15,578 nucleotides of DNA from a virus. Lineage: Duplodnaviria; Heunggongvirae; Uroviricota; Caudoviricetes. Location: the IMG/VR virus record IMGVR_UViG_2534682222_000014, positions 1 to 15,578 of that record, one strand, 5' to 3'. Positions 744-6,674 of the stretch are shown in pieces. How positions within the stretch are numbered: position 1 is the first letter of the stretch; every line of letters starts with the position of its first letter. A program made the position numbers and the translations under genes. The notes under the pieces are model-generated. The model ran no database searches. It was not told where the DNA came from and saw nothing but the letters and a program-made list of their open reading frames with translations.

Positions 744-1280
744 TTACAACGATCTAATCTCTTTCGATAAACAGTCCAACATTTTATTAGCCTCCTTATC
801 AAAATTATGACCAGCGTTTAGAATTATATTCTTCGCCAACTTCTTATCGTCAACTTCACCTGACTGTATTTTGAAGAAAACAGAATTGGCTGGTTTCAGC
901 AATTTTCTAGATTCATCAAACATAACGCTAATCTCAGGAAAATAAACACCAGAGATTAAAATAATTCTATCACCAACTCCTTTATACTCAGGGTTTTTAC
1001 TGAGAATTTCGTCTGATTTATCGCCAATGTCCTCAGATTTAAAACACCCATCAATACAATTTATCCAGCTCATATGATTGGCAAAAAGCAATTTTTTATA
1101 AAGTATTAATGCCTCATAAAGCTGTTCACCCTTTTCAATTTTCCTTCTATTTCTTTCTGAGCGCCACTCATGCGACTGCCTACTACTGTTCTGGAGGTAA
1201 CTTGTAAGAGAAGTTATCAATGTACCCACAAAAATCCCCAAAGCAGCAATTAATGCAACATTTTCTTTAGTCAGTTCCAT
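744..1280 (-). CDS. Hypothetical N-terminally membrane-anchored protein; AT-rich moron between Q and the lysis genes
   Basis: Open frame 744-1394; preferred start is ATG at 1280 (MELTKENVALIAALGIFVGTLITSL...), giving 178 aa, because the upstream 38 codons run through the terminator hairpin. Single N-terminal TM helix then a roughly 150-aa Lys/Glu-rich soluble domain with no motif I recognise. Visibly lower GC than neighbours. Confidence 0.6.
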   Translation of the reverse strand: MELTKENVALIAALGIFVGTLITSLTSYLQNSSRQSHEWRSERNRRKIEKGEQLYEALILYKKLLFANHMSWINCIDGCFKSEDIGDKSDEILSKNPEYKGVGDRIILISGVYFPEISVMFDESRKLLKPANSVFFKIQSGEVDDKKLAKNIILNAGHNFDKEANKMLDCLSKEIRSL

Positions 1281-1290
1281 ACTATCACCA

Positions 1291-1316
1291 TAAAAAAACC
1301 CCACCGAGGTGAGGTT
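1291..1316 (-). terminator. Intrinsic terminator, candidate tR' of the late operon
   Basis: Minus-strand CCUCACC-UCGG-UGGGG hairpin followed by UUUUUUU (plus-strand A-run 1292-1298), about 90 nt downstream of the Q stop and immediately before the moron RBS. Confidence 0.55.
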
Positions 1317-1332
1317 ATCATAGTGATCGATA

Positions 1333-1387
1333 GTTATACAAAGCCCATCATTGATGTCAAATATACACAAATACGGCAACATTGCAA
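1333..1387 (-). promoter_or_regulatory. Candidate late promoter (pR'-like) between Q and the terminator
   Basis: Minus strand reads TTGCAA-16 bp-TATATT (plus 1387-1382 and 1365-1360); an overlapping alternative is TTGACA-16 bp-TATAAC (plus 1360-1355 and 1338-1333). Sigma70-like hexamers seen by eye; which one is used is not established. Confidence 0.3.
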
Positions 1388-1403
1388 ACATCATGACGCT
1401 AAA

Positions 1404-3939: not shown

Positions 3940-4326
3940 TCAGGCGGCTGCACCCGCCGGTTCATATCTGCTGATCGTTATCTCTACCCGACCTTTCGGC
4001 ACTACGGGTCCCCATTCCACCAGCATGCGCTTAATCTGGCTGTCGTCTTCCCAGACACCCGCATGCGTCAGCGCGTCAAACAGGGCTTTGTTGTAATTAT
4101 CGATATCCCGGCGGCGCGCATCCGGCGGGTACAGAGTGATTTCAACCGCTGCCAGTTCAGTCGATGGCTTCGGGAGACGTCGTAATTGCTCAATGATCGC
4201 CACGCAGGCAGCGCTCTGGTATTTACGACCATCAGCGCTAATGAGGTGACGACCGGCCAGCGGCCCCTTATTAGGGGCGCGCCAGTAAGTGTTCACGCTC
4301 GGAGGAAAAGGCAGGATCAGTTTCAC
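3940..4326 (-). CDS. rusA: RusA-type Holliday-junction resolvase
   Basis: 128 aa, N-terminus KLILPFPPSVNTYW and acidic DIDNYNKALFDALTHAGVWEDD match RusA. GTG start overlaps the upstream stop as GTGA with GGGGAGAGG 4 nt upstream. Confidence 0.85.
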   Translation of the reverse strand: MKLILPFPPSVNTYWRAPNKGPLAGRHLISADGRKYQSAACVAIIEQLRRLPKPSTELAAVEITLYPPDARRRDIDNYNKALFDALTHAGVWEDDSQIKRMLVEWGPVVPKGRVEITISRYEPAGAAA

Positions 4327-5642
4327 GCGGCCTCTCCCCGCATATTGCGAACAAGTTCAGAAGCGGCAGTAATGATTTCGCTGGTGGCCGTTCGTTCCAG
4401 CCAGAGTTGATTGATGTTGGCTTTCAGCTTGTTCTGCTGTGATTCATCCAACATGTCAGCGCCATCTACCTGGTTGAACACAATCCCAACCTCCAGTGGC
4501 CAGATACGGGACTCGGGAAGCGGATCCGCTACTGGTTTAGCTTTCTCACGGATGTGCATGCGGATCTGGCGAATATTGGACCATCTGGAAACATCCAGGC
4601 TTCCCATGGCTGCAATGAAATCAGTGCTGTTCATGCCATATTCACCGGATGCTTCAAGGGCAACAGTGCGAATACGTTCCGACATATCCAGGCGCACTGC
4701 AGCGTCATCGAATTCAATCGACAACAACCACTCATCCACACCGAACAAAATACTCTCACGAATAAGCAGCTTCGCTTTGTCGATCGTTAATGGTGATACC
4801 TGAGTGAATTCCGGTGCTTCAACAGAATCCGCCGCCCAGGTATGCCCAAACTTCGATTCACTGAATGTGTATTCTTCTTTATCGCCAAACGCAGCTCTAA
4901 CGCATGCCCACGCCTCGACGCCGCTGACATCAAAAATATCTTTCTGAGTGAGTGGCAACTCAGCTTCTGGCTTATCAGCTGCAGGAGGTGTGGCAGTTGC
5001 AGGTTGAGACTTGCTGGCAGCAAATTGCGCCAAAGTCATAAACGCCCGCCCTTTTGCCTCCAGTTCTGTGCGGTTGATATAGCTGAACCGCTCAACACGC
5101 CACGACTTATCGAATACAGCTATGGCACCGGCAAAAAACGCGCTGGTGGGTTTCTGTTTTTCGTCAGCAGGTACAAACCACACAGGCAGATCGAACCCAA
5201 TACGACCACGAATGAATACAATGTGATCGGCATCTTCTGGCCACCACGTTTCACTCGGCGCGGCTTTTATCAGGAATACATAGCGACCGCCCTTCTCGCG
5301 CTGGGCTGCTGCGTAGTTCATGATATGCGTCATGCCGGTGATCGCCTGCTTCTCGTGGTACTGCGAACGGCTATACGGAGGGTTGCCATAACCAGCGCCG
5401 CCCAGTTCTGCCAGACGTTCAGACCAGTGCTGTGTCAGCGCGTTATCTTCGGCGGTGTACCATGCCGGGCACTTCGCGTTGTCGTCGTCAGCAAACAAGT
5501 CCAGAGCTAATGGACCAAATAGCGCGTTGATCCCCCAAAAAAGCAGATCCGGTGTCCGCCACTGATCGCCAACTTCTTTCAATTCGTGAGCTGGTTTGCT
5601 ACGCAGTGCCGCCAGCGCCTGGCAATATTTATTGGTCATCAT
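4323..5642 (-). CDS. Phage Dam-type N6-adenine DNA methyltransferase fused to a roughly 220-aa C-terminal domain of unknown function
   Basis: 439 aa. N-terminal half contains LDLFADDDN and the catalytic NPPY motif of N6-adenine MTases. C-terminal half (from about residue 215) has no motif I can assign. Start ATG overlaps the stop of the upstream initiator gene as ATGA. Confidence 0.7.
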   Translation of the reverse strand: MMTNKYCQALAALRSKPAHELKEVGDQWRTPDLLFWGINALFGPLALDLFADDDNAKCPAWYTAEDNALTQHWSERLAELGGAGYGNPPYSRSQYHEKQAITGMTHIMNYAAAQREKGGRYVFLIKAAPSETWWPEDADHIVFIRGRIGFDLPVWFVPADEKQKPTSAFFAGAIAVFDKSWRVERFSYINRTELEAKGRAFMTLAQFAASKSQPATATPPAADKPEAELPLTQKDIFDVSGVEAWACVRAAFGDKEEYTFSESKFGHTWAADSVEAPEFTQVSPLTIDKAKLLIRESILFGVDEWLLSIEFDDAAVRLDMSERIRTVALEASGEYGMNSTDFIAAMGSLDVSRWSNIRQIRMHIREKAKPVADPLPESRIWPLEVGIVFNQVDGADMLDESQQNKLKANINQLWLERTATSEIITAASELVRNMRGEAA

Positions 5643-6505
5643 GAACGGAACCCCGAATTTTCTGGCAGTGAGTAATCAACACTCTGGAAGTTTGCGCGGC
5701 TGGCTGAGTTAGTCTCCCATTTGCCGTTAACGCGTTCAGGCCGGCCAGCACTGGACCATTTGGTCGCGCTTTGCAGGTAACCAGGGAAGTTTTTTGGAAT
5801 GAACAGAGTTGCCGGGCGGAGGTATTGCGCCTGCTCGCTATCACGCCAATCGGCATTTTTGTAATCCACTACCAAGCACAGGTCATCAACAGTGAATTGT
5901 TCCCGAAGACGGGCGCGAATATTCTCCAGCGACGTGCTGCATACCTGGTAGCGTGAGCCAGTAGTCTGATTCAGGTAAGACAAAACCTGTCTGGCCTGAT
6001 CAGTAATCACAACCTCAGGGTCGGGTTGCGCCGCAACCGGACAAGAGGGTTTTGAAGTTACTTGTGGATCTTGTTTTGATTTTACTGACGGATCCCCGCC
6101 AGATTCTGACGGGTCAAAACCATCGTTTTTGCCAGATTTCGACGGGTCAGTTTTTGAGGCGTCAAATTTTGATGCGTCAGATTTTGACGTGTCAGAATCT
6201 GACAGTTGAGAAAATGCGGCAGTCTGAAGTTTCGCCACATTCAGCCGATACACGTTCGAAGCATTACGGTTACCATTACGGCGCTGTGTACGTGTGAGCC
6301 AGCCATCTTTTTCAAGCTTTGCGATTGCCGTTCTGATAGTGCTCGGGCCTGCGCCAAGCTGGCGAGCAATAGTTTCAATTGACGGCCAGCACACACCTTC
6401 ATCGCTGCTGAAGTCAGCAAGGCGAGCCATGATCGCAACACTGGACAACTTCATGCCCGACGCTGCGCAACCATCCCATACGTAGCCGGTTAATTTAGTG
6501 CTCAT
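5639..6505 (-). CDS. Replication initiation protein (O-like; N-terminal HTH, repeat linker, conserved phage C-terminal domain)
   Basis: 288 aa. N-terminal winged-helix-like region (PSIETIARQLGAGPSTIRTAIAKLEKDGWL), low-complexity S/K/D linker with 5-aa periodicity, and a C-terminal domain of the conserved-phage-C-terminus replisome-organiser type. Sits where lambda O lies, downstream of cro/cII. Confidence 0.7.
   Translation of the reverse strand: MSTKLTGYVWDGCAASGMKLSSVAIMARLADFSSDEGVCWPSIETIARQLGAGPSTIRTAIAKLEKDGWLTRTQRRNGNRNASNVYRLNVAKLQTAAFSQLSDSDTSKSDASKFDASKTDPSKSGKNDGFDPSESGGDPSVKSKQDPQVTSKPSCPVAAQPDPEVVITDQARQVLSYLNQTTGSRYQVCSTSLENIRARLREQFTVDDLCLVVDYKNADWRDSEQAQYLRPATLFIPKNFPGYLQSATKWSSAGRPERVNGKWETNSASRANFQSVDYSLPENSGFRS
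6087..6205. repeat. Iteron-like direct repeat array (candidate replication origin) inside the initiator gene
   Basis: Four in-phase tandem 15-mers at 6141-6200 (gacgggtcagttttt, gaggcgtcaaatttt, gatgcgtcagatttt, gacgtgtcagaatct), further copies at 6108-6122 and 6201-6205, and a weaker one at 6087-6101. They encode the SKxDx linker repeats. Confidence 0.6.
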
Positions 6506-6674
6506 GATCGTCCGTTATCTCCCTGAACTTTTGCCTGAAATGCTCAAGTGGGCTGAAGCATTCGTGTGGATAGCCATCTCGCAGGTAGATAACGCGCTGT
6601 GTTTCTGGCTCCCAGCGGATAACACGGACTGGCACTCCGCGGTGATCTTTGAACCTTCGGTTAAGTTCGCGCAC
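6495..6674 (-). CDS. Small hypothetical protein (59 aa), possibly DUF4222-like; overlaps the initiator start
   Basis: Below the track threshold, found by hand. GTG at 6674 with GGAGGG about 10 nt upstream; product VRELNRRFKDHRGVPVRVIRWEPETQRVIYLRDGYPHECFSPLEHFRQKFREITDDHEH; stop TAA 6495-6497 overlaps the O-like start by 11 nt. Family assignment is from memory only. Confidence 0.4.
   Translation of the reverse strand: MRELNRRFKDHRGVPVRVIRWEPETQRVIYLRDGYPHECFSPLEHFRQKFREITDDHEH

Follow-up and report, generated by a model that had tools for sequence, protein, structure and literature searches.

We favor, with moderate confidence, the reading that the 439-aa protein encoded directly downstream of the replication initiator in this lambdoid prophage is an orphan phage N6-adenine Dam methyltransferase of the HP1/T1/VT2 family, expressed from the early operon and carrying two mosaic accessory modules that are probably protein-binding. 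The enzyme belongs to a known family; its C-terminal tail is a routine, previously undescribed extension, and the segment inserted between the two is a rare domain for which there is no Pfam model. The initial annotation of this DNA had described a Dam-type methyltransferase fused to a C-terminal domain lacking recognisable motifs, translationally coupled to the genes on either side and lying in the slot normally held by a helicase loader. Much of this description has stood, namely the Dam fusion, a C-terminal sequence with no match in Pfam or NCBIfam, the coupling and a phage with no loader gene; the inference drawn from the slot has not.

Gene context and the Dam catalytic core

The window (the whole stretch of 15,578 nucleotides that was analysed) covers the early region of a lambdoid prophage of E. 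coli; the prophage shows 100% identity to NZ_LR536430 and 96% to a prophage of E. coli Nissle 1917, and the 439-aa gene is present in 25 of 5,426 complete E. coli genomes. Reading of the sequence confirmed an open reading frame of 439 codons at positions 4323-5642 and placed it on the minus strand, a point on which the initial annotation was silent. The gene order on that strand is cro-like, cII/YmfL-like, a DUF4222 ORF, the initiator (5639-6505), the 439-aa ORF, rusA, ant, DUF968/HNH and Q. Coupling on both sides was borne out: the ATG of the Dam gene overlaps the TGA of the initiator gene in an ATGA (the reverse complement of 5639-5642), and the GTG of the RusA resolvase gene (3940-4326, minus strand, identified by domain match and from RefSeq) overlaps the TGA of the Dam gene in a GTGA (the reverse complement of 4323-4326). 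The three genes and their 4-nt overlaps recur in the RefSeq annotation of a 100% identical E. coli prophage, where the 439-aa ORF is entered as WP_000988891.1, 'phage N-6-adenine-methyltransferase'. The Nissle 1917 copy of the prophage has been reported to be non-inducible (PMC5987069), and the function of the protein in this particular element is for that reason putative; the same gene is carried by plaque-forming relatives of the prophage.

Residues 1-212 (5007-5642, minus strand) are a phage Dam methyltransferase, as had been proposed from an NPPY motif in the N-terminal half of the protein. Our evidence for this is that: (i) PF05869 (Pfam Dam) matches residues 19-199 at 1e-41, with 142.9 bits against a cut-off of 28.1; (ii) TIGR01712 matches residues 16-197 at 2.4e-60, with 202.8 bits against a cut-off of 97.05; (iii) the PADLOC MTase_II profile PDLC03332 matches at 4e-159; and (iv) the sequence GNPPYS at residues 86-91 represents the (D/N)PPY motif IV, is kept in all aligned homologues and contains the NPPY itself at residues 87-90 (5373-5384). 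The core is 72% identical to the SfV Dam and to the Dam of a Stx2c phage, and a dN/dS of 0.10 indicates purifying selection. Structure prediction was less informative for this part, AF2 giving a pLDDT of 29-57 from an alignment short of diversity; the best Foldseek matches in BFVD and PDB were methyltransferases, at scores below significance. 'Phosphoadenosine phosphosulfate reductase', a widespread label on these Dam genes, is wrong.

The characterised members of PF05869 / TIGR01712 are the Dam enzymes of Haemophilus phage HP1, coliphage T1 and the Stx phage VT2, all of which are GATC-specific. By analogy with these relatives, GATC is most likely also the specificity of the 439-aa enzyme. GATC is not enriched in the window, where 69 sites were observed against 59 +/- 7 expected. 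The window protein resembles the phage Dam enzymes in scoring far over threshold with the family HMMs, in its NPPY motif, in its location among the early genes of a temperate phage and in having no partner endonuclease; it differs from them in possessing 227 extra C-terminal residues. Since the gene appears to be co-transcribed as well as translationally coupled with the initiator, newly replicated phage DNA might be methylated as it is made, which could serve to protect it from restriction and to let methylation keep up with replication where host Dam is in short supply. The non-specific methylase M.EcoGII is of a different (beta) class from the PF05869 Dam.

Two modules in the C-terminal region

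The C-terminal region had been treated as one domain of roughly half the protein. Domain searches confirmed that residues ~213-439 have no match in Pfam, NCBIfam or PDB sequences; however, the region is not one domain but two separable modules, and the last 64 residues are routine. This follows from alignments with relatives and from the way in which the 297-position PADLOC profile PDLC03332 matches the protein in two stretches, with the intervening segment falling between profile positions ~224 and ~231. The layout is thus the Dam core, a Pro/Ala-rich linker (residues 213-227; 4962-5006, minus strand; pLDDT <50), a 143-aa insert (residues 228-370; 4533-4961, minus strand), a short linker and a 64-aa tail (residues 376-439; 4326-4517, minus strand). 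An explanation of the C-terminal half as the usual extension of phage Dam enzymes consequently holds for the tail, as found in ST64B Sb44, the phiNP mtase and PDLC03332, and fails for the middle, which is unusual. In terms of annotation, E. coli prophages of the Nissle type encode, as their 439-aa enzyme, the common Dam+tail protein with a module inserted into it.

The closest relatives make the same point. The Dam+tail form (292-300 aa) includes ST64B Sb44, the mtase of Citrobacter phage phiNP, the PDLC03332 proteins and the yfdM remnant in the CPS-53 element of E. coli K-12; it shares with the window protein a Dam core that is 78-90% identical, the 64-aa tail and a position between a Phg_2220_C initiator and either rusA or a C5-cytosine methylase (C5 MTase) gene, and it differs in that the window protein has the 143-aa module in the linker that joins core to tail. 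The insert, recognised by its being missing from the 292-aa forms, also makes up the C-terminus of ParB-like proteins (a ParB N-domain followed by HTH_ParB). In Pantoea phage AH07 gp48, for example, the C-terminal 140 aa are ~41% identical to the insert and the gene occupies the corresponding slot behind an initiator of the same family, the differences being that the N-terminal partner is ParB-like rather than a methylase and that the tail is usually missing from such proteins. We suppose that the modules, joined by flexible linkers, would have been acquired by mosaic recombination, the 143-aa module having entered the linker that precedes the tail.

The insert is a rare domain without a match to anything characterised. 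When 1.84 billion cluster representatives were scanned exhaustively with HMMER, 19 of them matched; a search through one genome per GTDB species, able to detect close relatives only, placed it at 7 loci, all in Enterobacterales. Its profile gave only noise against PDB sequences and Pfam at E values up to 10, and its predicted fold found no match in PDB or BFVD by Foldseek. Structure prediction was nonetheless successful in itself: whereas the single-sequence AF2 model of the whole protein had a mean pLDDT of 42, AF2 models of the modules, built with a 38-sequence alignment, were confident for both the insert (pLDDT 82-92, helical with a small beta element) and the tail (pLDDT 75-88, helical), neither resembling a characterised fold. 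Both modules are acidic (pI 4.7 for the insert, with 25 acidic and 16 basic residues in 143 aa, and 4.5 for the tail), and both are under purifying selection, as is the Dam core, with dN/dS values of 0.14 and 0.18, respectively (25 distinct alleles, compared in pairs that are not independent of one another). On the basis of these pLDDT values (75-92) and dN/dS values, insert and tail are real, constrained domains, and they define two small domain families, both without a Pfam model. Literature searches on PF05869, M.EcoGII-type methylases, Nissle prophage 3 and initiator-solo topics returned nothing on these C-terminal modules.

We infer that the insert is a protein-protein interaction or oligomerisation module rather than a DNA-binding, catalytic or helicase-loading one. 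Counting against this is a strikingly conserved motif in its N-terminal half, SGxxxWACxxAAFGxKxxYxFxESKxxHxWAADSV, whose W, C, K, Y, H, D and S residues could point to a specific ligand or to catalysis more than to a plain interface. The insert also has a WxNIRxLR motif.

It might also be supposed that the modules form a target-recognition or DNA-binding extension that alters or sharpens the specificity or processivity of the methylase. They do lie C-terminal to a minimal core of ~200 aa with no obvious separate recognition domain, and the same insert is found on another type of DNA-binding protein, the ParB-like proteins with their HTH. We consider this highly unlikely, as acidic modules bind DNA poorly, searches of them revealed no HTH, zinc or other signature of DNA binding and the ParB-like partners have an HTH of their own. 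Furthermore, the Dam core is about 90% identical between proteins that have the insert and proteins that lack it, and specificity is therefore probably set by the core.

The slot downstream of the initiator

The gene upstream of the 439-aa ORF (5639-6505, minus strand) encodes a replication initiator, identified with Pfam, PHROG and NCBIfam profiles; its N-terminal half matches the PHROG family 'replication initiation O-like' and contains a winged helix (HTH_36), and its C-terminal domain is Phg_2220_C. Six repeats of ~15 bp (GTCAGATTTTGACG-like) at 6098-6209, within the initiator gene, are putative origin iterons; no DnaA boxes were found near them. The initial annotation had assumed that the position directly after such an initiator normally belongs to a helicase loader, and we examined this assumption in two surveys, one of 80 IMG/VR loci with initiators 72-100% identical to that of the window and a second of 80 loci reached via the ParB-like+insert protein and kept from 304 confirmed stretches.

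In none of the 160 loci was the gene after the initiator a loader. In the first survey the gene following the initiator, or following a small PerC-like ORF, encodes Dam+insert+tail in ~25 loci, Dam+tail in ~34, Dam+insert without the tail in 12 and a Dam-C5-methylase fusion in 1; a 75-aa Dam remnant is found in L025, and there is no gene at all in L081 and L091, whose initiators are 72-75% identical to that of the window. In the second survey ParB-like+insert occupies the same slot behind a homologous initiator. The genes of the first survey abut or overlap and so leave no room for a loader gene. The slot after this initiator family is thus a DNA-modification/ParB slot, in which each C-terminal module is optional while the initiator stays constant. 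The insert, in particular, is not an obligatory partner of the initiator, as initiators 98-100% identical to that of the window occur with it (L014-L017) and others, 97-100% identical, occur without it, being followed by Dam+tail (L018-L021) or by the Dam remnant (L025).

The same picture was obtained from isolated phages. Eeyore carries Dam+insert+tail, phiNP and ST64B carry Dam+tail and AH07 carries ParB+insert; there is no annotated loader in the replication/early regions of phiNP, ST64B and AH07, nor in the whole genome of Eeyore. Similarly, in the prophage itself we found no P-like, DnaC-like or DnaB-like gene from the integrase to the lysis genes, which agrees with the initial description of a phage without a loader. 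Given the 160 loci and the isolated phages, absence of a loader is a property of the phage lineage.

It follows that the loader-slot reading is not supported, and nothing indicates that the 439-aa protein replaces a helicase loader. All that it has in common with lambda P (PF06992) and with the DnaC/IstB loaders is its position directly downstream of an O-like initiator and its translational coupling; it differs from them in lacking sequence or profile similarity, in having no P-loop and in that the region in question is optional with the same initiator. More specifically, PF06992 had no Pfam match in the protein, searches of Pfam, NCBIfam and PHROGs revealed no match to AAA+, IstB or DnaC, there is no GK[ST] motif and hence no P-loop, and comparison of the insert profile with a PF06992 member gave an hhalign probability of 0.3%. 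Nor is there the obligatory co-occurrence with the initiator that would be expected of a loader, as the insert, the tail or the whole gene is missing in relatives. By analogy with iteron plasmids, replication in this lineage would need only the initiator and the host DnaB/DnaC. An iteron-binding initiator working without a phage helicase or loader, in a lambdoid lineage that includes ST64B, phiNP, Eeyore, AH07 and the Nissle prophage, is a lead for bench work.

A weaker version of a replication role is that insert and/or tail act as an adaptor or loader surrogate by binding the initiator, DnaB or another replisome component. We regard this as unlikely. The insert is confined to the slot after this initiator family, with two unrelated partners and in a lineage without a loader, and its strongly conserved motif looks more specific than a generic interface, all of which would suit a replication-linked role; set against this are the optional nature of the modules beside near-identical initiators and the lack of similarity to known loaders described above. 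It is equally doubtful that such an adaptor assists in loading of the host helicase at the origin of the phage or keeps DNA-modifying or ParB-like proteins attached to the nascent replisome, or, put in terms of the insert, that this module is an origin- or replisome-docking domain by which Dam or a ParB-like protein would be tethered either to DnaB or to the Phg_2220_C-type initiator, a proposal to which we assign little probability. If it were true, a docking insert would couple DNA modification or partition-like functions to the initiation of replication in a loader-less lambdoid lineage and, in the strongest version, would assist in helicase recruitment. No similarity between the insert and the initiator was detected with hhalign.

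The tail, C5-cytosine methylases and mosaicism

The tail is a three-helix acidic C-terminal extension, defined from homologues, of a Dam subfamily labelled PDLC03332 in PADLOC and phrog_111 / phrog_16025 in PHROGs. It is the usual C-terminus of hundreds of phage Dam proteins of 292-300 aa from Salmonella, Citrobacter, Klebsiella and E. coli, and in the window protein it is 72-85% identical to ST64B Sb44, the phiNP mtase and hundreds of proteins of 292-293 aa. The consensus ESRIWPLEV...NQLWLER... is present, phrog_16025 matches residues 379-434, and no fold match was obtained in PDB or BFVD.

A clue to what the tail does comes from its neighbours. A large C5 MTase gene (PF00145) lies downstream of 32 of 60 tail-bearing genes and of 1 of 89 tail-less genes (Fisher's test p = 7e-15, a value inflated by relatedness among the loci), and the lone tail-less exception is an in-frame Dam-C5MT fusion. 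Klebsiella phage 5 LV-2017 encodes the tail on its own, as an 85-aa ORF beside a C5 MTase, and has a lambda-P homologue (PF06992, 7e-61) adjoining its initiator. That the tail stands by itself beside a C5 MTase where a lambda-P loader is also encoded argues that it goes with methylases and not with replication. The tail may thus be a docking or coupling element for a C5 methylase; this partner is missing from the window, and the tail of the 439-aa protein would have been left without it. The tight linkage suggests a Dam/C5-MTase partnership and is, like the initiator, a lead to be followed at the bench.

The tail also records recombination at this locus, as its last ~15 residues co-vary with the downstream gene: tails ending ...ELVRNMRGEAA, as in the window, have the 4-nt overlap with rusA, and those ending ...GLVGSMQGVTHA overlap the C5 MTase gene by 8 nt. 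Such joints inside the tail, the extensive mosaicism of the locus and the existence of frameshifted and split versions of the gene (L006, L010, L053 and L056) could be taken to mean that the insert is functionless filler, left behind where Dam-type and ParB-type genes recombined in the slot that they share. We find this the least probable of the readings considered, given that the insert is 30-50% identical between Dam and ParB contexts and between genera, has a dN/dS of 0.14 and has a confidently predicted fold.

An anti-restriction role, like a replisome-tethering one, has a low probability. In an anti-defence scenario the acidic insert and/or tail would inhibit a host restriction or defence protein, as a DNA mimic or decoy delivered together with the protective methylase. 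The acidity of both modules fits with this, as does their fusion to proteins of DNA modification or of the ParB-like type, in phages that abound in modification genes (in Eeyore, Dam, a C5 MTase, a further MTase and a TGT-like gene), and their optional, patchy distribution, which is typical of accessory counter-defence genes. We nevertheless judge the scenario improbable. The net charge of the insert is modest, its 25 acidic residues being set against 16 basic ones, and that of Ocr and ArdA is negative far beyond it; there was no match in PADLOC, in the PHROG anti-defence categories, in PDB or in BFVD; and a dN/dS of 0.14 indicates purifying selection rather than the signature of an arms race.

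Two smaller observations concern the insert. Stand-alone insert ORFs (P0139, P0142 and P0144) were considered as a possible autonomous protein and proved to be pieces of frameshifted or split Dam+insert or ParB+insert genes. In 5 of the 80 loci of the second survey, the ParB-like+insert gene is followed by a gene for a DpdA-like transglycosylase.

The insert and the tail in other loci

Two further proteins, P0134 (469 aa) and P0135 (333 aa), contain the conserved sub-motif from the N-terminal part of the insert, AAFGEKEVYSFSESKFAHTW. In them it is linked to a helical C-terminal region that is different and longer, and to PEPxxAISEP repeats in tandem. The insert itself may consist of two exchangeable sub-modules. 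In one viral contig (L051, 4855-7107) the Dam core is fused in frame to the C5-cytosine methylase, giving a 750-aa protein, and this is the only locus in which a C5 methylase occurs without a preceding tail. The ParB-like proteins that carry the insert are followed by a homologue of DpdA-like tRNA-guanine transglycosylases in 5 of the 80 loci, as in Pantoea phage AH07 (gp48-gp49; L003, 4125-6199), a gene pair that recalls DpdB/DpdA in 7-deazaguanine DNA modification. A TGT-like gene is also present in the left operon of phage Eeyore.

Labelling of the Dam genes

The name 'phosphoadenosine phosphosulfate reductase' is given to these Dam genes in many records from RefSeq and Pharokka, for example to ST64B sb44 (L001, 5320-6213), Eeyore CDS0032 (L002, 5311-6645) and SfV dam. 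The label arises because phrog_33262 is a family of PAPS-reductase+Dam fusions; the proteins so labelled contain only the Dam domain of the two, and the label is therefore a propagated misannotation.

The initiator gene and its small neighbour

Six iterons of about 15 bp, GTCAGATTTTGACG-like and spaced by 15 bp, lie within the initiator gene (window 6098-6209), in the region encoding the Ser/Asp/Lys-rich linker between the initiator's domains. They probably constitute the phage origin, and a search for a DnaA box (TTWTNCACA) near them found none. The start of the initiator gene is overlapped by a 59-aa DUF4222 ORF (window 6495-6674, minus strand). An unrelated prophage from a metagenome (L010, 3884-4628) has the same gene pair, DUF4222 followed by an HTH_36 initiator. 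For this initiator family the ORF may represent a small, conserved partner.

Prophage surroundings

Just past window position 1, beyond the first Q-holin-endolysin cassette, the host genome carrying the identical prophage (NZ_LR536430; L004, 17618-21993) contains another antiterminator gene and another set of holin, lysozyme and spanin genes, as well as three tRNA genes, for Ile, Thr and Gly, which suggests a composite or tandem prophage. Directly downstream of the Q antiterminator gene is a 216-aa ORF (window 744-1394, minus strand) that had no match in PHROG and a weak match to HemY_N; RefSeq names it 'heme biosynthesis HemY N-terminal domain-containing protein', and it may be a membrane moron.
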